IMG/VR virus record: IMGVR_UViG_2671180501_000010
Length of the DNA: 48,383 bases
DNA from: a virus
Taxonomy: Duplodnaviria; Heunggongvirae; Uroviricota; Caudoviricetes
Strand: one strand, 5' to 3'
Part shown: piece by piece, positions 213 through 46,831 of the stretch
Numbering within the stretch: the stretch's first letter is position 1
Layout: every line of letters begins with the position of its first letter
Translations under genes and position numbers: made by a program
Notes under the pieces: model-generated
Database searches by the model: none
The model's input: only the letters and a program-made list of their open reading frames with translations
Told to the model about the DNA's origin: nothing

Positions 213-797
213 TTACTCCCTGACAGGGTTCGTAGGCCACTCAATATCAGGTGCAGTTGACGTATCAACACGGTTCAGCAATACCCGATACTTTTTCCAT
301 GCTTCCAGCAACGAGATTTCTTCCTCCGTTGCAATTTCCAGATCTGCAGCATCCTGAAGCGGCGCAATATGCTCACTGGCTACCTGCATCAGGTTGTTTT
401 TTGTTTCTTCCGCCTCCCGGATCCGGAACAGTTTTTCTGCTTCCGTATCCTTCACCCAGGCTGTGCCGTTCCACTTCTGAAACTCCCCTTCCGGCGATAA
501 CCAGGTAACATTTTCCGGTAACGGACCGAGTTCAGAAATAAATAACGCGTCGCCGGAAGCCACGTCATAAACCGTTTTACCCCGATGATCTTCAACGAGA
601 TGCCACGATGACTCATCACTGTTGAAAACAGCCACGAAGCCAGCCGGAATATCTGGCGGTGCAATATCGGTACTGTTTGCTGGCAGACCTGTATGAGGCG
701 GAATATATGCATCACCTTCACCAATAAATTCATTAGTTCCGGCCAGCAGATTATAAATTTTTATGGTCCGTGGTTGTTCACTCATTCTGAATGCCAT
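213..797 (-). CDS. tfaR: Tail fibre assembly protein (Tfa family)
   Basis: 194-aa ORF; translation matches recalled Rac TfaR / lambda Tfa sequence; start overlaps stop of upstream stf (ATGA). Confidence 0.85.
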
Positions 798-4676: not shown

Positions 4677-7600
4677 ATACCGTTAAAAATAATGGGCGGA
4701 ATAATAATCTGGCGGTCAAAGTTATGATCATCGCTGATGGTGACTGTAACCGTACCGTCTGGTGTTTCCGTGTTACCCCACGTACCGACTTTTTTCGGGA
4801 AGGCTTTTGATACAGCTTTAACGAAATCCCCTCTGACCTGGGTCGCCTCCAGCATGCCCTTAATCGTACAGTTCTGGTTAATCGTGACATTGTTGAGCGT
4901 TCCTGAGTTCGCATTCACACTACCACTGATATCCGCATTTTTAGCGGTCAGCTTTCCGTCTGATGTCAGGGAAAATACCGGAGGACTGCCACCGCTGGTA
5001 ATGGCGGGGGCTGTCAGGCGCTTCAGGAACACGTCGTTCATGAATATCTGGTTGCCCTGCGCCACAAACATCGGCGTTTCATTCCCGTTTGCCGGGTCAA
5101 TAAACGCGATACGATTGGCGGCAACCAGAAACTGGCTCAGCTTGCCTTCCTCCGTGTCCTCCATGCTGAGGCCAATACCCGCGACATAATGTTTGCCGTC
5201 TTTGGTCTGCTCAATTTTGACGCCCCACATCGCATTCCATTTATCGTTAGCGTCCTTCCACTCTTTCGAAAACTCATCCAGTCTGCTGGCGTTATCCTCC
5301 GTCAGATCAACTTTTTCCAGCAGCTCTTTACCGAGATGGGATTCGGTTATCTTGCCTTTGAAAAAATCCAGGTAACCTTCCGCATCATCGCTCGCCCGAC
5401 CGACGGCCTCCACGAATGCCGATTTGCCAACGGTGTTCACACTGCGGATATAAAAGTAATAATCATGGCCCGGTTTGATATTGATACTGGCGGCTATCCA
5501 GTACAGCCCCGCGCCAAGGTAGCGGGCTGTGGTTTCAACCTGCCTGATATCGGTAATCCGCGTTTCCGAGAACCAGAACTCAAACTGTACCGTCGGATCA
5601 TAAACCGCAAGATGCGGCGTGGCAGTTATCTGAAAATAGCCCGGCGTCAGCTCAATCCGCGACGGTGCTACCGGTGCGGCAATCCTGAACGATACCGACG
5701 CCGGATCGCCCTGCTGTCCCCAGGCATTTACCGCCCGGACTGTCAGCGTGTACCGTCCCAGCGCCAGTTGCGTGAAGCGGTATGTGGTTTCCGTCGTCCG
5801 GGCCGTGCTGACCAGCCGCTCACTGCCGTCATCCGCTGCCACGGTCAGGCGAAGCATAAAGCTCACCCCCTTCACCACCTTCGGCGTGTCCCAGCGCGCC
5901 AGCACCTGATATTCCCCGCTGTCTGCGGTGACTTCGGCAGTCAGGTGCTGCACCGCTGGCGGCGTGACACCATTCACCGTGCCGCTCTGGTCGCCGTCAA
6001 AGTGCGCCCCGTTATCCACGATGGCTTCTTTTTCCGGTACATGCTGCACGGCAGTGATGGCATACGTGCCGTCATCGTTCTCACGGATACTCACACAGCG
6101 GAACAGGCGCTGGCGCAACGTCGGCAGCTTCAGCCCCCACACGCTGTATTCAGCAACGCCGTCAGGAACACGGCTCACTTTCACCTTCACGCCGTCGGTG
6201 ACGGACTGAACCTCCACGCTGACCGGATTGCCACTTCCGTCAACCAGGCTTATCAGCATGGTACCGGAGGATGGCAGCGTGATTTCACGGTCGAGCGTCA
6301 GCGTCCGGGTCTGGCTGTTTACCGCCAGCACGCGCCCGCCGATGCTGATACCCGCATAGTCATCATCACAGATTTCAATGACATCGCCCGGCACATGGCG
6401 AAGCCCTTCTGCGCCCACGCTGAAGTCCACGGTCTGCGTTTCCAGCAGTTCTGTTTTAATCAGCCACAGCCCGGCGCGGTGTGCCTGCCCCCGGCTGGTA
6501 CAGCCAAAAGCATCCATCTTCGTGACGTTACGACCGTAACGGGCAATGGCCTGCGTATCCTCCACAAGCTCTGTCGCCGTCTCCCAGCCGTTATCCGGGT
6601 CAATCCAGTTCACCTCAACGGCATTATGGCGGTCTTTCAGGGCGCTGAAGCTGTAGCGGAACGGCGCGCCATCATCCGGCATCACCACATTACTGCGGTT
6701 ATAGGTCCACACCTTATCCGACGGTCGGTCCTGCACGAACGTCAGCGTCTGCCCGTTCCATACCGGCATACAGCGCATCGCCGAGCAGAAATCACTGAGC
6801 ACATCCCACGCCTTGCGCTGTGTGGTCAGGTACGCATTACAGGTGATGCGCGGCTCCGTGCCGCCAAAGCCGTCCGGCACTGACTGGTCGCAGTACTGGC
6901 CGATGACATACAGCGCCCATTTGTCCACATCCGCCGCACCAAGACGTTTCCCCATGCCGTAGCGCGGGTGGGTCAGCATATCCCACAGACACCAGGCCAT
7001 GTTGTTGCTGTATGCTGGTTTTAACGTTCCGTCCCAGATACCGCTGTATTGTCGCGTCTGCGGGTTATAGTTCGACGGCACCTGCAGAATGCGCCCGCGA
7101 AGATGATAATTACGACTCACCTGCTGGCTGCCGAACTGCTCCGAGTCCACCTGTACGCCGACCAGTGCAGTGTTCGGGTAGCACTGTTTCACATCGATGA
7201 TTTCGGTGTATGACGACCAGAGCGTTTTGTTCTGCAGCTGGTCTGTGGTGCTGTCCGGTGTCATCCTGCGCATCCGGATACTGAACGGGCGCGGAGGCAG
7301 GTTATCCACCACCACCGAGACCAGATACTGCGAGGTGGTTTTGCCCTTAATGGTGATGTCTTTTTCCGTCACCCAGCCACCGTTACGCTGTATCTGAACC
7401 AGCAGGCGGACTTCCGACGGATTCCTGTCTCCCTTTGAGGTGGTTTCNNNNNNNNNNNNNNNNNNNNNNNNNNNNNNNNNNNNNNNNNNNNNNNNNNNNN
7501 NNNNNNNNNNNNNNNNNNNNNNNNNNNNNNNNNNNNNNNNNNNNNNNNNNNNNNNNNNNNNNNNNNNNNNNNNNNNNNNNNNNNNNNNNNNNNNNNNNNN

Positions 7601-26207: not shown

Positions 26208-27665
26208 TTAGGAGCGCCAAAAAAAACCTGAAAACAATATAATAACAGGATAAATTTCAAGGCGACCAAGAATCATAGCTATGCACATTAAATATTTTGC
26301 AATGTCATTAAGCACTCCGAATGACGATGCAGTAGCCCCAAAACCTAATCCCATATTATTAATACATGCAGCCACTGTTGCAAATGATGTAAGAAAATCA
26401 TATCCCATACCATTTAACACCAGTATAAAAAACACCGTGAAGAGAGTATAAAGAAAAAAGAAACTCCATACAGACCTCATTACACGATCTGTAACTATCT
26501 TCCCTCCTACATTTACACTCAACAACGCTCTGGGATGAGAAAGCTGATTTATCTCGTGTTTGCTTTGTTTGAAAAGTATAAGAAATCGAAGTGACTTAAT
26601 TCCACCACAGGTTGAACCTATACATCCCCCAAAGAAACTTGACAACAGCAAAAACACTATCGTGTGCGTGGGCCAGTTTGCATAATCCTGCGTAGCTAAA
26701 CCATTATCAGTGAGCATGGAGCTGGCAAGAAAAAACGAATGAATAAAACTTCCATGCAAGTCATACATACCTATATGCCAGACCTGGAAAGAGGTAACAA
26801 TGATCACCCCTAAGGCTATTAACAGAAAGAAACGAAGTTCAATATCTCTGATTAAAGGTTTTATCGTTTTTCTGCTAATAACAATATACCAAAGAGTGAA
26901 GTTGAAAGCCGATAGCAGGGAAAAAGAACCAGCCACCAGCTCAACCAAATAGTTATTAAAATATCCGATACTCTCGCTATGAGTTGAGAAACCACCAAGC
27001 GAAACTGTGGAAATCCCGTGACAAATAGCATCAAACAAAGGCATTCCTGCAAGTCTATAACAGACAATACAAGCAATACCTAATAAAGAATAAGTTATCC
27101 ACAGTGTCCGTGACGTATCGGCCAGGCGGGGAGTGAGTTTGTCATCCTTAAATGGCCCCGGCATTTCTGACTGATAAAGCTTTGCACCACCAATACCCAA
27201 TAATGGCAATACTGCAACCGCCAGAACAATAACTCCTAAACCACCTATAAAATTTAACTGTGACCGATAGTACAAATATGCCCGAGGTAATGAACTAACA
27301 TCATCAATTACAGTTGCTCCTGTTGTTGTTATTCCAGAAACCCCTTCAAACAGAGCATCAATGAACGTTAAATTAAGTTCTGAGTCAATCCATAAAGGGA
27401 ATGCACTAATAACAGAAAACAAAATCCAAAACATTACAATTATAATAAACCCATCACGGGTACGTAATTGAATGCCAGATTTCTTAGTTGTATACCACGC
27501 TCCGCCACCAATGCAAAAAAATATAACGAAAGTTATAAAGAAAACGAACAGGCTTTTTTCTTTATAAAACAATGCTACAACCATTGGTGGCAACATTGAA
27601 AGACTATAGAGCCAAACCAGGAACCCACACATATGAGTAACAACTCTTACATGAGATGTATTCAT
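26208..27665 (-). CDS. trkG: Trk-system potassium uptake protein TrkG
   Basis: 485 aa from ATG 27665 (MNTSHVRVVTHMCGFLVWLYS…), matching recalled K-12 TrkG; polytopic membrane protein; markedly AT-rich gene. Confidence 0.9.
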   Translation of the reverse strand: MNTSHVRVVTHMCGFLVWLYSLSMLPPMVVALFYKEKSLFVFFITFVIFFCIGGGAWYTTKKSGIQLRTRDGFIIIVMFWILFSVISAFPLWIDSELNLTFIDALFEGVSGITTTGATVIDDVSSLPRAYLYYRSQLNFIGGLGVIVLAVAVLPLLGIGGAKLYQSEMPGPFKDDKLTPRLADTSRTLWITYSLLGIACIVCYRLAGMPLFDAICHGISTVSLGGFSTHSESIGYFNNYLVELVAGSFSLLSAFNFTLWYIVISRKTIKPLIRDIELRFFLLIALGVIIVTSFQVWHIGMYDLHGSFIHSFFLASSMLTDNGLATQDYANWPTHTIVFLLLSSFFGGCIGSTCGGIKSLRFLILFKQSKHEINQLSHPRALLSVNVGGKIVTDRVMRSVWSFFFLYTLFTVFFILVLNGMGYDFLTSFATVAACINNMGLGFGATASSFGVLNDIAKYLMCIAMILGRLEIYPVIILFSGFFWRS

Positions 27666-27802
27666 ATCTAAATATTCTTTCAATTATAACCACCTTGCTG
27701 CAATATTATGATTATACTGTATAAAATTTAACTCCTCTTAGATCTTACTTCACTGTTCCTTATGAAACAATCATCAAAATGAATCATATTGTAGTTAAGA
27801 TT

Positions 27803-28267
27803 TTACTTTAAACACTGCTCGGTTATGTATTGCTGAGCACCTTCAAGTTGGGCCTGCATCATTACCAGTCGTTCCCGGAGGGTGAAATAATCCCGTTCAG
27901 CGGTGTCTGCCAGTCGGGGGGAGGCTGCATTATCCACGCCGGAGGCGGTGGTGGCTTCACGCACTGACTGACAGACTGCTTTGATGTGCAACCGACGACG
28001 ACCAGCGGCAACATCATCACGCAGAGCATCATTTTCAGCTTTCGCATCAGCTAACTCCTTCGTGTATTTTGCATCGAGCGCAGCAACATCACGCTGACGC
28101 ATCTGCATGTCAGTAATTGCCGCGTTCGCCAGCTTCAGTTCTCTGGCATTTTTGTCGCGCTGGGCTTTGTAGGTAATGGCGTTATCACGGTAATGATTAA
28201 CAGCCCATGACAGGCAGACGATGATGCAGATAACCAGAGCGGAGATAATCGCGGTTACTCTGTTCAT
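27803..28267 (-). CDS. rzpR: Spanin, inner-membrane subunit (Rz)
   Basis: N-terminal TM helix then coiled-coil periplasmic domain; ATG at 28267 overlaps the R stop (ATGA); directly downstream of the endolysin. Confidence 0.8.
27862..28047 (-). CDS. rzoR: Spanin, outer-membrane lipoprotein subunit (Rz1), embedded in Rz in the +1 frame
   Basis: 61-aa ORF with lipobox (LVVVGC) and proline-rich region (PPPPPAW…PPPDW), wholly inside Rz in another frame. Confidence 0.75.
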
Positions 28268-28761
28268 TGCTGACCCCACAAACAGATTTCACGCTCAATC
28301 TCACGACGAGTCATGAGACCTTTCCATTGCTTACCGCCAGCATATGTCCAGCGACGTAGCTGATCACATGCGCCTTTGATATCGCCCTGGTTTATTTTGC
28401 GAAGAAGCGTCGATGTTCTGAAATTGCCAGCACCCACGTTGTAAACGAATGAGTAAAGAGCGCCGCGCGTTGTTTCCGGTATATCGACTTTGATGTACGG
28501 GTTAATTTGTCTGGCGACAGTGGCAAGGTCTTTATTCAAGAGTGTTTTGCATTCTGCTTTGGTATACGTTTTACCGAGCATGATGTCTTTTCCTGTATGC
28601 CCGTGACATACAGTCCATACACCAACAATATCTTTGTATGGTATGTAGCTGACACCTTCCAGACCATCGTTACCACTTGGGCCAGTGATTAACACTGATG
28701 CTATAGCAATTGCTCCGCCACCAATAGCAGCAGCAACGACTTTTCGTAATGATGGAGGCAT
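28264..28761 (-). CDS. R: SAR endolysin (T4-lysozyme-like muramidase, phage 21 R-type)
   Basis: Gly/Ala-rich weakly hydrophobic N-terminal SAR helix ([18 protein letters not shown]) followed by a lysozyme catalytic region (E…D/C…T); start overlaps holin stop. Confidence 0.85.
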
Positions 28762-28976
28762 TATTCACCTCTCGCAGCCTTGCGCTTATCTTCTTTAATC
28801 TTGAAATAAAGGTTTGTCAGGTACGTCAGCAGGCCAAATACCAGACTACCCAGCACACCGATTGCAGCCCACTGTGACGGAGTTACTCTATCGAGCAACT
28901 GTAAAAACCAGTAGCCAGCACTGCCTGCGGAGGTGCCGTAGGCAATGCCTGTTGAAATTTTGTCCATGGATTTCAT
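28761..28976 (-). CDS. S: Pinholin (phage 21 S-type) with dual-start motif
   Basis: [26 protein letters not shown]…KAARGE matches recalled S21; starts at 28976 (MKS, antiholin) and 28967 (MDK, holin); two TM segments. Confidence 0.85.
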
Positions 28977-29077
28977 AGCCTCACCTCCGCACGGAACGGA
29001 TGGCATAGTTATTATGTGTAGGCTTTCAGACACATCAATCAGAGCCTTAATTGATATATATGCTGGAGACGATGCAA

Positions 29078-29102
29078 TATAAAAAGCTCGCCGTAGCGAG
29101 CT
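29078..29102 (-). terminator. Rho-independent terminator downstream of lipoprotein gene 1
   Basis: 7-bp stem agctcgc / gcgagct with loop cgta (29085-29102), followed on the minus strand by a T-run. Confidence 0.5.
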
Positions 29103-29227: not shown

Positions 29228-29623
29228 CTAACCTCGCATGTCAAAGCCAGATTTCTGAAAATCTCTGTAGACTTCCGGATTGTTGAAGGCCGGAAATTTG
29301 GCTTTATGAGCTGCGGACTTTATCGCTTCGCAATAGGCTTTATCACCGTTACTGGTAGATATTTTTAACGCCGTGCCATCCTGAGAGAATTCCATATGCA
29401 ACCTGCATTTTTTCCCTTTCCAGTTATGCGGCTCATCAAGTTTGGCATTAATTGCAGCTCTGATTCCCCGCGCTTGCGCCCCCCATTCATCCTGATCATC
29501 CCAGCGTCCTGAACTGCAACTACCTGTAGCAGTAGTTTTGTGGCAATCTGAAGGGTGTAAAGGTGTGCATCCCGCAACAAAACCGACCCAAAAAGTCAAC
29601 ATAACGATTTTCTTTAATCCCAC
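29228..29623 (-). CDS. Lipoprotein with TolA C-terminal (domain III)-like domain, paralogue 1
   Basis: GTG start at 29623 with GAGGAG RBS; signal peptide plus lipobox (FVAGC); C-terminal region (…KGKKCRLHMEFSQDGTALKIS…YCEAIKSAAHKAKFPAFNNPEVYRDFQKSGFD) parallels TolA domain III. Confidence 0.7.
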   Translation of the reverse strand: MGLKKIVMLTFWVGFVAGCTPLHPSDCHKTTATGSCSSGRWDDQDEWGAQARGIRAAINAKLDEPHNWKGKKCRLHMEFSQDGTALKISTSNGDKAYCEAIKSAAHKAKFPAFNNPEVYRDFQKSGFDMRG

Positions 29624-29773
29624 TTCTTGCTCCTCAATCCATTAAAATCTCAGCAATAGTAGTTGTTACGTCCGCCACTGGCTCAGAGCTGACTATCCGC
29701 TAAATTTAGCTCAGTGCCGTAGCTGTGTCAGAACAAACCTAAGCCGAAACCGTTTATTACAAAACAATAAATA

Positions 29774-30202
29774 TCAGGGTTTAAAATCCAGCACCCCATT
29801 TTGAAATACTTTATATACTTCCGGCGAAGGGGGGGCAGGTATATCAGCATTCTTTATCGCATTCATCGCTTCACGACATAAATCGAGGTCTCCACTTTCT
29901 CTTTTAACCTCCAGTAGAAGGCCATTCGGGGCCATATGCATTCTCAGTGTACACTCTTTTCCTGAATACTTACTCGCATCCCCGAACTGTTTTTCGATGG
30001 CGCTCTTGATTTGATGGGCATACAGACGGATATCCTCACTAACATCAGAAGTACGTTCAGATGAACTCACATACTGTGTCTCTATTGCTTTATCGGAGTA
30101 ATATGATGTACGGTCATGATAATTTGTCGATACAGCATCAGTGCACCCGATAATAATCCCACTAATAATCAACGTAAGAATTGATGCGCTACGAAAACCC
30201 AT
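29774..30202 (-). CDS. Lipoprotein with TolA C-terminal (domain III)-like domain, paralogue 2
   Basis: ATG 30202 with GAGGAAAA RBS; lipobox (IIGC); C-terminus YAHQIKSAIEKQFGDASKYSGKECTLRMHMAPNGLLLEVKRESGDLDLCREAMNAIKNADIPAPPSPEVYKVFQNGVLDFKP closely parallels recalled E. coli TolA C-terminus. Confidence 0.75.
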   Translation of the reverse strand: MGFRSASILTLIISGIIIGCTDAVSTNYHDRTSYYSDKAIETQYVSSSERTSDVSEDIRLYAHQIKSAIEKQFGDASKYSGKECTLRMHMAPNGLLLEVKRESGDLDLCREAMNAIKNADIPAPPSPEVYKVFQNGVLDFKP

Positions 30203-30232
30203 TTTTCCTCACATATGTCATATAGTAAAGGA

Positions 30233-30261
30233 TTATATATACCGTTGTTTTGGACGCTCAA
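30233..30261 (-). promoter_or_regulatory. Candidate sigma-70 promoter for lipoprotein gene 2
   Basis: On the minus strand: -35 TTGAGC (30261-30256), 17-bp spacer, -10 TATAAT (30238-30233), about 25 nt upstream of the ATG. Confidence 0.3.
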
Positions 30262-30789
30262 ACAGCGAATCAGATCAAATAAAACGCACATTTGTTAACA
30301 TTTACACAAAGTCTGCGTGGGATATTCTGAAAGAATATCCATAATGTGGAGAGAATCTATTGAAGTGCATGGTGCCGGGTGCCTCCCGGTGAACAAAATG
30401 TTCGTGATACCTGTCGGCGACAGAAAAGGTTAATGGTATCACCCCACCGCACAGGGGGATTCACCATGCAGGAGTTTTCTTAGCAAACTCACTGCGCGCC
30501 CGGCAACTCCCAACCACATAAAATGCGGAGTTTGTGGCATTTATGCATATAACTCGCAGGAATTATCTTAAAAAACTGATGTCGATCCGGATTAAAAAGA
30601 AGCAGGTCATCATCAGATGACTGGAAAAAAGGAAAACAAAAAATACTCATCATACAGTTTTGATTGCAGGGATGAGCCTGCTATGCACAATATGCAGAAT
30701 ATAAGCAAGATAAAAATATGCAGGCATATTATTTCGGATCTTGTTATTAACACAACCTTTTTAATAATCATTTGGCATACAATAAACCA

Positions 30790-30819
30790 GCCCAAAAAGA
30801 ACCGCCTAAACAGGCGGTT
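30790..30819 (-). terminator. Rho-independent terminator (second terminator downstream of the Q gene)
   Basis: Stem accgcct / aggcggt (30801-30818) with 4-nt loop, followed on the minus strand by TCTTTTT. Confidence 0.45.
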
Positions 30820-31140
30820 GGTCAATACAAAGGATGCTTCGTCTTTATTATAGTAATCTGAGGCGTCGGGTGTCTTGTATCAGACAACATATTGTCCCGC
30901 TAAACAGCGAATTACAAACCACCCTGCAATGATCTCTCATCTCATTTTATATGAGTTGACGACATCAGGATAACGCATCATCAGCCCCTGCCAAGAAATA
31001 TCAAAACTCCCGCCAGCAATGTGTTATCACAATATTGTAAAAAAAACACAGCACCGAAACTATAACTGGTCTCTGTTATAATTTGGAGCAGAAAGACCAG
31101 TTGCCCAACTAGCAGCATTCTCCCCTGCTTTCCTGACGTA

Positions 31141-31166
31141 AAAAAACCGCATTAAGCGGTTTTTTT
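31141..31166 (-). terminator. Rho-independent terminator, candidate tR' (late terminator acted on by Q); bidirectional in appearance
   Basis: aaaaaaccgc-attaa-gcggtttttt: GC stem flanked by an A-run and a T-run; about 80 nt downstream of the Q stop (31247). Confidence 0.5.
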
Positions 31167-31246: not shown

Positions 31247-31789
31247 TCAAGCCATTTTCTCAGCAAATGATTCACGCATGGGAATATATAGGGCATACTC
31301 AGCAACAGCTAACCAATTAGCAATCCGTTTTTCGCATGTGCTAAAACACCACTCTGGGTGTGCATCATTTAGCAATTCAGCCATTTTGCGCTTAGTCATC
31401 CCCCGCCCTTCATAGCGTTGCCGGAGAATGCAAATCAATCCTGGATGCTCTGCCAGCACCTCACTTATGACTCGATCAATACATAACGCCTCTGCATCAG
31501 TACAATGCGCCAGCCAGCTCTTTTGCTTGCCGTTGATCATCTCTCGCAAAAACGCTTCCAGCTCAGCTTTCTCTATTCCCGCTTTTTTCATTCTGCGCAG
31601 GGCTTCATTAATGGCTGTTTTCGTCAGTTTTTTGGATGCCAACAACTGATTGAACATATTCCCTGACCTGCCACCGCCAATATACGACCAGCGCCCCCAC
31701 ATACGTAGTTTTCCCTGAATCCAGACACTTTCCAGCGTGGTGAGGCGAAGGTGTTCTCCGCTTTTTCCTGTATTCGTTGGGTAAATCAT
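31247..31789 (-). CDS. Putative late-gene antitermination protein Q
   Basis: 180-aa ORF at the position expected for Q (after rusA/YbcO-like nin genes, before terminator and lysis genes); GKLRMWGRW motif recalled from Q-type antiterminators; not verified by search. Confidence 0.5.
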   Translation of the reverse strand: MIYPTNTGKSGEHLRLTTLESVWIQGKLRMWGRWSYIGGGRSGNMFNQLLASKKLTKTAINEALRRMKKAGIEKAELEAFLREMINGKQKSWLAHCTDAEALCIDRVISEVLAEHPGLICILRQRYEGRGMTKRKMAELLNDAHPEWCFSTCEKRIANWLAVAEYALYIPMRESFAEKMA

Positions 31790-46455: not shown

Positions 46456-46650
46456 ATGAGATATGACAATGTTAAACCATGTCCATTTTGTGGTTGTCCA
46501 TCAGTAACGGTGAAAGCCATTTCAGGATATTACCGAGCGAAGTGTAACGGATGCGAATCCCGAACCGGTTATGGTGGAAGTGAAAAAGAAGCACTCGAAC
46601 GATGAAATAAACGAACCACTGGAAATAATAATGGAGGTGTTCATGTATAA
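46456..46650 (+). pseudogene. ralR: Restriction alleviation protein RalR/Lar, interrupted by an in-frame TGA at codon 50
   Basis: Reads MRYDNVKPCPFCGCPSVTVKAISGYYRAKCNGCESRTGYGGSEKEALER-TGA-NKRTTGNNNGGVHV-TAA; the final TAA overlaps the ydaC ATG as in the intact arrangement; the recalled intact protein has W at the TGA position. Confidence 0.6.
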
Positions 46651-46831
46651 AATTACCGCCACTATTGAAAAGGAAGGTGGCACTCCTACTAACTGGACAA
46701 GATATTCAAAATCTAAACTAACGAAATCAGAATGCGAAAAAATGCTCTCAGGTAAAAAAGAAGCAGGCGTTTCCAGAGAGCAGAAAGTAAAACTGATAAA
46801 TTTTAATTGCGAGAAACTTCAGTCCTCGTGA
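46643..46831 (+). CDS. ydaC: YdaC-like small protein (62 aa)
   Basis: ATG 46643 after GGAGGTG; MYKITATIEKEGGTPTNWTRYSKSKLTKSECEKMLSGKKEAGVSREQKVKLINFNCEKLQSS. Confidence 0.6.
   Translation: MYKITATIEKEGGTPTNWTRYSKSKLTKSECEKMLSGKKEAGVSREQKVKLINFNCEKLQSS

Follow-up and report, generated by a model that had tools for sequence, protein, structure and literature searches.

Two prophage-encoded lipoproteins with a TolA domain III fold: candidate decoys for Tol-dependent bacteriocins and filamentous phages

Introduction

TolA and TonB are import hubs that group A and group B bacteriocins, respectively, exploit for entry; TolA-dependent filamentous phages use I pili and F-like pili as their receptors. 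Several mobile elements encode small lipoproteins that protect their carrier by blocking the uptake route of phages or colicins, such as Llp of T5, Cor of phi80 and N15 and TraT of F, whose targets are receptors in the outer membrane, for example FhuA and OmpA. In the 1993 work of Levengood-Freyermuth et al., an excess of periplasmic TolA domain III (TolA-III) reportedly led to tolerance to colicins E1, E2, E3 and A, and not to the TonB-dependent colicin D. Artificial periplasmic TolA-III also causes leakiness of the outer membrane (PMC6195910). Here we analysed two genes, P1 and P2, located in a stretch of 48,383 nucleotides (the IMG/VR record IMGVR_UViG_2671180501_000010, hereafter the window) that is a Rac-like lambdoid prophage of Escherichia coli. 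An earlier note, made from the letters of this DNA alone, had described their products as two lipoproteins with C-termini resembling TolA-III. The analysis indicates that both genes are intact, encode lipobox proteins with this fold, are under purifying selection and are related to genes carried by many prophages and plasmids. In our preferred reading, to which we assign a probability of about 0.5, the two proteins would be decoys, namely copies of TolA-III that are tethered to the outer membrane, are not energised and catch Tol-dependent bacteriocins and filamentous phages.

P1 and P2 are predicted lipoproteins with the fold of TolA domain III

Profile searches, alignments and structural models together indicate that P1 and P2 are lipobox proteins with a genuine TolA-III fold, an alpha/beta fold whose sheet of three strands packs against helices. 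Searches with the Pfam family PF06519 (TolA_C, gathering cutoff 25 bits) gave 82.6 bits for P2 (E 2.4e-23) and 54.6 bits for P1 (E 1.3e-14). A phmmer search of the Protein Data Bank (PDB) aligned residues 55-142 of P2 without gaps to residues 334-421 of E. coli TolA (E 5e-28) and residues 51-129 of P1 to TolA residues 341-419 (E 5e-9); over the domain, 52 of 88 residues of P2 (59%) and 27 of 88 residues of P1 (31%) are identical to TolA. AlphaFold2 models, which were built on the family alignments, reached a predicted local confidence (pLDDT) of about 90 over the C-terminal 88 or so residues of both proteins, the linkers being disordered or of low confidence. When these models were compared to PDB by Foldseek, the top matches were all TolA-III structures with a probability of 1.00 (2x9a_B for P2, with TM-score 0.96, root-mean-square deviation 0.6 A and 59% identity; 3qdp for P1, with TM-score 0.92, deviation 1.2 A and 31% identity), followed by remoter TolA and TonB C-terminal domains. 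The cysteine pair that forms the disulfide C363-C388 of TolA is present in both proteins and invariant in their homologues, and both match phrog_5772 over all 128 profile positions (218 bits for P1 and 210 bits for P2). The likeness to TolA's C-terminal domain that the earlier note had seen in the letters is thus borne out by the alignment and structure prediction that it had proposed as checks, and the contrary outcome, an absence of structural similarity to TolA-III, was not obtained.

At their N-termini, P1 and P2 carry a cleavable lipoprotein signal peptide, after which comes a linker of 25-35 aa that is disordered in the models. The signal peptide of P1 is MGLKKIVMLTFWVGFVAG-C19, with lipobox VAGC and K4 and K5 in the n-region, and that of P2 is MGFRSASILTLIISGIIIG-C20, with lipobox IIGC and R4 in the n-region. 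Both show the pattern of bacterial lipoproteins, namely a positively charged n-region, a hydrophobic h-region and a lipobox [LVI][ASTVI][GAS]C, as assigned by eye from the pattern, and the lipobox cysteine is invariant in 24 aligned homologues, in agreement with the earlier description of both ORFs as lipoproteins. According to the Lol +2 rule, a residue other than Asp at position +2 leads to sorting of lipoproteins to the outer membrane; both proteins have Thr, and not Asp, at this position, which predicts that they are sorted there.

In spite of this fold, P1 and P2 are not genuine TolA proteins, because they have neither the membrane anchor nor the helical domain II, they miss the cutoff of the TolA model NF007065 (107.8 bits for P2 and 53.7 bits for P1, against a cutoff of 213) and they are located outside the tol-pal operon. 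In the case of TIGR02794 (cutoff 59.45), P1 stays below the cutoff with 47.2 bits, and P2 exceeds it with 75.6 bits but covers only positions 265-362 of the 362 of the profile.

The ligand-binding strands of TolA are largely kept in the sequence of P2 and altered in that of P1

The N1 domain of g3p, colicin N (ColN) and the N-terminus of TolB bind TolA-III by beta-strand augmentation on strand beta3 (A415-K420), and the TolA substitutions D418P or K420P abolish these interactions and produce the full tol phenotype (PMC4339652). Colicin A (ColA) uses the opposite edge, strand beta2 (L375-P380), where K368, K379 and K396 contribute cation-pi contacts (PMC3365938). The binding of ligands to TolA is largely mediated by the backbone (PMC4339652), with affinities of about 1 uM for ColN and about 40 uM for TolB (PMC4339652) and about 1.3 uM for ColA (PMC3365938).

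In P2, strand beta3 reads GVLDFKP where TolA has APLDFKP, the LDFKP segment with D139 and K141, the equivalents of D418 and K420, being identical, and strand beta2 reads LLEVKR where TolA has LLDIKP; K379 and K396 are kept, K368 is replaced by His and L392 by Met. Because LDFKP of beta3, most of beta2 and both K379 and K396 are kept, P2 seems to be a close surface mimic of TolA-III that retains the beta3 strand and most of the colicin A site. In P1 the corresponding strands are SGFDMRG (beta3) and ALKIST (beta2) and the colicin A lysines are replaced; P1 may bind ligands whose interaction is driven by the backbone, or something else. We also considered a resemblance of the P1 segment SSGRWDDQDEWG to the colicin TolB box (DGSGW...W) and rejected it, since the spacing of the Trp residues differs and the second Trp is located in helix 1 of the model.

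P1 and P2 belong to separate lineages under purifying selection

The proteins were described in the earlier note as paralogous. They are indeed homologous (E 2e-18), but with 29% identity overall, and 25 of 88 residues (28%) over the domain, they are distant homologues and not close paralogues. The suggestion that a duplication had been followed by diversification did not hold, since the domain of P2 is 59% identical to that of TolA and 28% identical to that of P1, P1 belongs to a separate lineage and each type is found alone elsewhere; a recent tandem duplication was rejected on the same grounds (25/88 between P1 and P2 against 52/88 between P2 and TolA). In a crude neighbour-joining tree calculated from identity distances, E. 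coli TolA is the closest relative of P2 outside its own cluster and P1 is placed in a separate clade of ten members, none of which is a full-length TolA. The P1 family comprises 370 clusters, including sequences from Citrobacter, Enterobacter, Serratia, Klebsiella and Raoultella, and the P2 family comprises 46 clusters that come essentially from E. coli and Shigella only.

The ratio of nonsynonymous to synonymous substitutions (dN/dS) was 0.06-0.16 for P1 compared with ten homologues and 0.36 for P2 compared with a variant of 66% identity, and both genes are under purifying selection. The linker of P1 is conserved across genera and under as much constraint as the fold itself, with a dN of 0.03-0.12 while dS is close to saturation. 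The linkers of the P1 class contain a C-x8-C loop and RWDDQDEWG; the cysteine pair of this loop is absent from TolA and from P2, and the linker of P2 is variable. The P1 linker may be a second functional module.

The conservation data decide on the possibility that P1 and P2 are decaying, functionless remnants of a captured 3' end of tolA. The annotation generated by PGAP for RefSeq points in that direction, as at an identical locus (L001, 8129-8935) P2 is labelled a tolA pseudogene of 261 nt, "incomplete; missing N-terminus", a flag that arises because the protein matches only part of the full-length TolA equivalog model. However, both ORFs are complete, with a start codon, a Shine-Dalgarno-like site and a signal peptide that TolA lacks, their diverged orthologues retain the ORF, the lipobox and the disulfide cysteines, the dN/dS values are well under 1, and the same 142-aa protein is annotated as intact in other assemblies. 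The retained ORF, lipobox and cysteines and the dN/dS values effectively refute the pseudogene reading, whose probability we consider negligible. The RefSeq entry for P1 (WP_001348108.1) starts at the internal ATG 29602, which would drop the positively charged n-region (KK) that the GTG start restores. Whichever function holds, the pseudogene call for P2 and the truncated start of P1 hide two intact and selected genes.

Distribution of the family on prophages, plasmids and chromosomes

An exhaustive profile search of 1.84 billion representatives revealed 584 clusters (50% identity) at E <= 0.001. Among the best 150 of these clusters, 93 are no longer than 170 aa and most of them start with a lipobox signal peptide, and short lipobox proteins account for 57 of the 131 representatives with a complete domain. 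A TolA-like C-terminus, FKNAxLDF(K/R)x, is found in most class-A members.

The intact 1.25-kb P2-P1 module is present with at least 99% identity in 773 of 5426 complete E. coli genomes. Phage mEp460_ev081, the only match of a tblastn search with P2 in 50,697 phage genomes, carries the module after Q and two tRNAs and before S, with a Q gene that differs from that of the window, and all copies that a scan of IMG/VR revealed were identical ones from E. coli prophages. The P2 variant of 66% identity stands alone in Qin-like prophages, 3' of two tRNA genes and before nanS-p/holin/lysozyme. At the Qin-like loci L108-L110 (approximately 4826-5539 and 5566-5721), an AraC-family regulator gene and two tRNA genes stand before the variant, and in L110 a nanS-p-type esterase (DUF1737/SASA) follows it. 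In Stx phages the late-operon slot between Q and S, after tRNA genes, is occupied by stx, and the site of the P2 variant in Qin-like prophages is the equivalent slot.

P1-type genes with 88% identity are located on 607 plasmids of E. coli and Shigella. On the IncI1/B/O and IncK plasmids that we inspected, the P1 homologue is located 60-160 bp 3' of the nikB relaxase gene in the same orientation (L003, 7004-7435; L004, 7005-7400; L088 and L089), which suggests that it is co-transcribed with the oriT/relaxase operon. Of the P1-type plasmid matches, 302 are typed as non-mobilizable, and many of those listed are similar in size to the one that was inspected, the 92.7-kb pO157-like IncF plasmid NZ_CP028697.1 (L127). 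On this plasmid a P1 homologue of 88% identity is found at 6001-6432, between toxB and the leading-region genes hok/psiA/psiB, and Klebsiella IncFII plasmids carry P1-like genes about 1.2 kb 3' of repA.

Other members are found beside toxin genes of Klebsiella. On 10-kb ColRNAI plasmids that encode a cloacin-type bacteriocin with its immunity and lysis proteins, the gene of a class-A TolA-III lipoprotein overlaps (ATGA) a TonB_C gene with a Sec signal, as in NZ_CP028545.2 (L112), where the TolA_C lipoprotein is encoded at 6127-6498 and the TonB_C protein at 6495-6860, so that both import hubs of bacteriocins are represented by a copy destined for the periplasm. When P0349, a TolA-like lipoprotein from Klebsiella that is related to it, was used as a tblastn query, 747 plasmid records were matched, most of them from Klebsiella, and many small ColRNAI plasmids listed among these matches carry the TolA_C and TonB_C pair. 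A published description of a cloacin plasmid merely mentions the presence of "TolA and TolB family proteins" (PMC10269471). At Klebsiella cdiB/cdiA loci for contact-dependent inhibition (ShlB and TPS/DUF637) a P2-like TolA_C lipoprotein is encoded directly upstream (L114, 3117-3554; L115, 2809-3249; L116, 2518-2958), preceded by a 134-aa lipoprotein with no Pfam match. A conserved tandem pair of P1-like and P2-like genes in Klebsiella, suspected because of adjacent accession numbers, was not borne out at the loci that were read (other than the K. michiganensis pair), where the gene upstream of the P2-like one encodes this unrelated 134-aa lipoprotein.

Lone P1-type genes are also inserted at varied chromosomal sites in several genera, often beside the hyc operon, a SulP transporter, a LysR regulator or a glutathione peroxidase gene, and homologues with 70-89% identity to P1 occur across Kluyvera, Leclercia, Raoultella, Enterobacter, Klebsiella, Pantoea, Yokenella and Citrobacter. 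This breadth, the frequent location next to housekeeping genes, the very strong selection that extends to the linker (0.06-0.16) and the lack of full-length TolA in the P1 clade would fit a role in envelope physiology, with no relation to defence, mainly for P1. An accessory outer-membrane lipoprotein of Enterobacteriaceae would then bind a conserved partner in the host, for example TolB, CpoB or peptidoglycan-associated proteins, by means of its TolA-like domain and Cys-loop linker and would tune outer-membrane stability or cell division, and the phage and plasmid copies would hitch-hike. We consider such a role rather improbable, since the chromosomal sites vary between genera and even within Enterobacter, the gene is always a lone insertion with its own conserved upstream sequence, as is typical of mobile cargo and not of a core gene, the same type of protein is encoded by about 600 plasmids of E. 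coli and Shigella, and the P1 type is missing from most E. coli genomes.

Gene order and expression elements of the locus

The window contains an integrase, which is located at its right end, together with RalA/RalR, genes of recE size, trkG and the structural genes as a full set, and the matching stretch in RefSeq chromosomes is identical and annotated accordingly, as expected for a Rac-like lambdoid prophage. The Rac-like marks include the RalA antitoxin sRNA (46649-46827, minus strand), an IS009 RNA match (256-454, minus strand) and trkG (26208-27683, minus strand). In contrast to Rac of K-12, the element in the window retains the gene at the Q position as well as the genes for lysis and structure.

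Read along the minus strand, the locus consists of DUF1367, DUF1364, DUF1133 (the Q position), about 1 kb with no long ORFs, P2, P1, a terminator-like hairpin, S, R, Rz/Rz1 and trkG (Table 1), so that P1 and P2 do lie upstream of the lysis cassette, as had been noticed before, between a Q-like antiterminator gene and S/R/Rz. The place equivalent to the Q position is held in mEp460 and in Qin-like prophages by Pfam Antiterm Q. The identical RefSeq locus names the lysis genes essD, rrrD and lysis protein. A wider-family profile search of the window revealed no TolA-like ORF other than P1 and P2 and no TonB-like ORF.

Table 1. Positions of P1, P2, their parts and the neighbouring features in the window.
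Feature	Position	Strand	Description	Basis
P1	29228-29623	-	GTG start, 131-aa lipoprotein precursor, class-B TolA-III-like, conserved Cys-loop linker	ORF
P1 signal peptide and lipobox	29567-29623	-	VAG-C19, +2 Thr	read from sequence
P1 conserved linker	29495-29566	-	aa 20-43, TPLHPSDC27HKTTATGSC36SSGRWDD	dN/dS, cross-genus alignment
P1 TolA-III-like domain	29231-29494	-	aa 44-131	alignment and AlphaFold2 model
P2	29774-30202	-	ATG start, 142-aa lipoprotein precursor, class-A putative TolA-III mimic domain	ORF
P2 signal peptide and lipobox	30143-30202	-	IIG-C20, +2 Thr	read from translation
P2 TolA-III-like domain	29777-30040	-	aa 55-142	alignment and AlphaFold2 model
Candidate sigma-70-like promoter	30232-30261	-	TTGAGC-18-TATAAT, 5' of P2	10/12 consensus match
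Terminator-like hairpin and T-run	29075-29102 (hairpin 29102..29085)	-	between P1 and holin S	consensus match
STnc100 sRNA-like element	30313-30499	-	5' of P2	Rfam 86.6 bits, gathering score 47
Lysis cassette	27803-29033	-	holin S, endolysin R, spanin Rz/Rz1, 3' of P1	ORFs and RefSeq names
Holin S	28761-29033	-		
Endolysin R	28264-28761	-		
Rz/Rz1	27803-28279	-		
Q-position gene	31247-31789	-	DUF1133 family, 5' of the module	ORF and RefSeq annotation

Each gene has its own putative ribosome-binding site, a Shine-Dalgarno-like GAGGAG at 29630-29635 for P1, six bases 5' of its GTG, and GAGGA at 30206-30210 for P2. The promoter-like site before P2 is identical in mEp460_ev081, and the terminator-like hairpin 3' of P1 has a 7-bp stem with 5 GC pairs, followed by TTTTATATTG. 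These elements, which the earlier note had also listed, are present as consensus matches only, and the region contains 11 promoter-like sites where 6.3 are expected. With this promoter-like site and terminator-like hairpin as a flanking pair, and with its occurrence in phages that have different Q genes, the P2-P1 unit is a candidate moron.

Other candidate elements were detected between the Q-position gene and P2. The STnc100 match falls inside the gap of about 1 kb, and STnc100 also precedes P2 in mEp460_ev081 (L002, 5444-5634, minus strand, 114 bits). That phage equals the window from the middle of STnc100 through P2 and diverges upstream, which indicates a recombination boundary within STnc100. 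This element may be a late-leader RNA or an independent sRNA. In the region 30788-30876 (minus strand), a strong terminator-like hairpin (30819..30800; AACCGCCTGTTTAGGCGGTT and a T-run) lies no more than about 30 nt 3' of a promoter-like AAGACA-18-TATAAT (30876..30847), and a second hairpin with a T-run was seen by eye at about 31141-31160 (minus strand), approximately 85 nt 3' of the Q-position gene. The first promoter-like site with its hairpin, the second hairpin and STnc100 are candidate elements of the pR'/tR' type.

The position next to the holin gene would be explained if P1 and P2 were accessories of lysis or release, acting as dominant-negative inhibitors of Tol-Pal. After late, Q-dependent expression at a high level, free TolA-III would compete for the N-terminus of TolB and block the dissociation of TolB from Pal, and the resulting transient tol phenotype, leaky and vesiculating, would aid the spanin in disrupting the outer membrane or increase the release of vesicles and progeny. 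The location of P2 and P1 in the late transcription unit between the Q-like gene and S, the presence of P2-type genes in the same slot of two other lambdoid backgrounds and the retention in P2 of the TolB-binding beta3 strand (site according to PMC4339652) are consistent with this possibility. Overproduction of periplasmic TolA-III is used in biotechnology for the release of periplasmic proteins from E. coli (PMC6195910), and a review considers that modulated TolB interactions could regulate vesicle production (PMC7391070). On the other hand, most relatives are located away from lysis genes, on conjugative, virulence and bacteriocin plasmids and on chromosomes, and a permanently leaky envelope would be a burden there. 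A holin, an endolysin and Rz/Rz1 are already present in the phage in intact form, the module has promoter-like and terminator-like elements of its own, as in a moron expressed by the lysogen, and the weak affinity of TolB for TolA (about 40 uM) would demand very high expression. We therefore consider a lysis accessory, the main rival of the decoy reading, unlikely. If Tol-Pal inhibition were true, P1 and P2 would be the first natural regulators of Tol-Pal encoded by mobile elements, which would matter for vesicle release and, by their position, for the biology of the stx slot.

A possible decoy function of P1 and P2

In the decoy reading, P1 and P2 would be exported via Sec and Lol and held by a lipid anchor in the outer membrane's inner leaflet, where a flexible tether of about 25-35 residues would display a free-standing TolA-III fold. 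With no TolA membrane anchor and no domain II, this domain would not be coupled to the TolQR motor and would transmit no force. The decoys would stand just beneath the outer membrane, where the translocation domains of colicins threaded through porins and the N1 domain of g3p first emerge, and would bind these ligands as TolA does, through augmentation of a beta strand. A captured ligand would leave the productive pathway, because proteins that lack domains I and II cannot transmit force, and its import would stall. We infer that P1 and P2 are expressed in the lysogen as a moron-like unit in the late-operon stx slot, consisting of the promoter-like site, the two genes and the terminator-like hairpin, and that a lysogen, or a host of such a plasmid, would tolerate Tol-dependent bacteriocins and resist filamentous phages specific for pili.

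We prefer this reading because it explains the carriage by plasmids that encode pili, the coupling to TonB_C on bacteriocin plasmids and the moron-like layout. The beta3 strand and colicin A site of P2, together with the pilus-plasmid carriage and the TonB_C overlap, give the decoy idea contextual support, and the PDB entry 2x9a, the best match of the P2 model, is a complex of If1 g3p and TolA. The affinities of TolA-III for ColN (about 1 uM) and ColA (about 1.3 uM), compared with TolB (about 40 uM), would favour a selective decoy. The prophage studied here would stack two distinct decoys, P2, which tracks E. coli TolA, and P1, of a conserved class with a Cys-loop, and would so cover a broader spectrum of ligands.

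Several points weigh against a decoy function. The argument is weaker for P1, because the colicin A lysines are lost and its beta3 strand is changed to FDMRG, so that its ligand may differ. The P1-type genes that stand singly on chromosomes, next to housekeeping genes of Enterobacter, Leclercia, Pantoea and others, would fit a physiological role in the host as well. The two genes are located in the late operon directly 5' of the holin gene, and tolerance would be pointless if they were expressed only after induction; the promoter and terminator calls are consensus matches only. The overproduction of TolA-III that reportedly gives tolerance also makes cells leaky (PMC6195910), which may be a cost or point to another purpose. 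No model of PADLOC-DB 2.0 matched the P1/P2 family at E values up to 1, and in the literature searched, which leaves most subscription journals outside its coverage, we found no binding or phenotype study of any family member; the matches were incidental, such as "TolA protein" in tables of accessory genes and the mention on the cloacin plasmid.

More generally, motor-less, lipid-tethered TolA C-terminal domains, sometimes together with a periplasmic TonB C-terminal domain, might constitute a "translocon-hub decoy" defence on mobile elements of Enterobacteriaceae, in which the epitopes that bacteriocins and g3p use to bind Tol or Ton would be sequestered as they come in. We propose this reading, taken as a whole, tentatively and as somewhat short of an even chance. 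Its carriers would be lambdoid prophages and IncI1, IncFII, pO157-like and cloacin plasmids.

Much of the competition among Enterobacteriaceae of the gut is mediated by colicins and filamentous phages, and both are under development as narrow-spectrum antibacterials. If the decoys are real, about one in seven complete E. coli genomes carries a transferable and broad tolerance factor that is missed by catalogues of resistance and defence, and the same would apply to pO157-like, IncI1, Klebsiella IncFII and cloacin plasmids. Such decoys would also explain how plasmids that encode pili, and so attract TolA-dependent filamentous phages, could keep the cost of this low, and mimicry of a periplasmic hub would join the known exclusion strategies, which target surface receptors.

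Comparison with known systems

The assignment of the TolA_C domain is already known from Pfam and from the NCBI/RefSeq names, and PHROGs gives the function of phrog_5772 as "unknown". We are not aware of an earlier description of intact, selected and putatively lipid-tethered TolA-III mimics in two lineages, of their wide carriage by prophages and plasmids or of the partnership with a TonB C-terminal domain that is seen on bacteriocin plasmids.

The closest known relative is E. coli TolA-III (TolA residues ~314-421; PDB 1TOL, 1S62, 2X9A, 3QDP/3QDR), with which P1 and P2 share the fold (TM-score 0.92-0.96) and the disulfide pair, and to which P2 aligns gapless at 59% identity with the beta3 and beta2 binding strands retained; P1 differs from it in being only 31% identical, with altered binding strands. 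In contrast to TolA, both P1 and P2 are devoid of the N-terminal transmembrane anchor and of domain II and are encoded outside the tolQRA-tolB-pal-cpoB operon, and they have instead a lipoprotein signal peptide and a short linker, which would provide an outer-membrane tether with no energisation by TolQR. Artificial periplasmic TolA-III (Levengood-Freyermuth et al. 1993; Wan and Baneyx 1998) resembles them as a free periplasmic TolA-III uncoupled from TolQR, and is the experimental precedent for the decoy reading as well as for that of leakiness, since leakiness and, reportedly, colicin tolerance result from it. These laboratory fragments of TolA were soluble and overproduced, whereas P1 and P2 are natural, diverged and selected proteins that are encoded on mobile elements and putatively lipid-anchored.

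Within the family, the TolA-III lipoprotein of the Klebsiella cloacin plasmid (L112) is similar to P2 in that it belongs to class A, with lipobox LTAC, the C-terminus NAPLDFRP and 85.8 bits for TolA_C, and it differs in being coupled to a TonB_C gene and a bacteriocin operon, whereas the window has no TonB-like ORF. In their genomic layout, P2 and P1 are similar to the late-operon morons of lambdoid phages (stx, and bor and lom of lambda) as accessory genes with promoter-like and terminator-like signals of their own between Q and S, and tRNA genes precede both the P2 variant and the copy in mEp460, as is the case for stx, but the proteins encoded are different. Finally, Llp, Cor and TraT are likewise small lipoproteins encoded by mobile elements, and protection of the carrier would be shared by P1 and P2; there is no relationship in sequence or fold, and P1 and P2 would mimic a periplasmic energy-transducing hub instead of masking a surface receptor.

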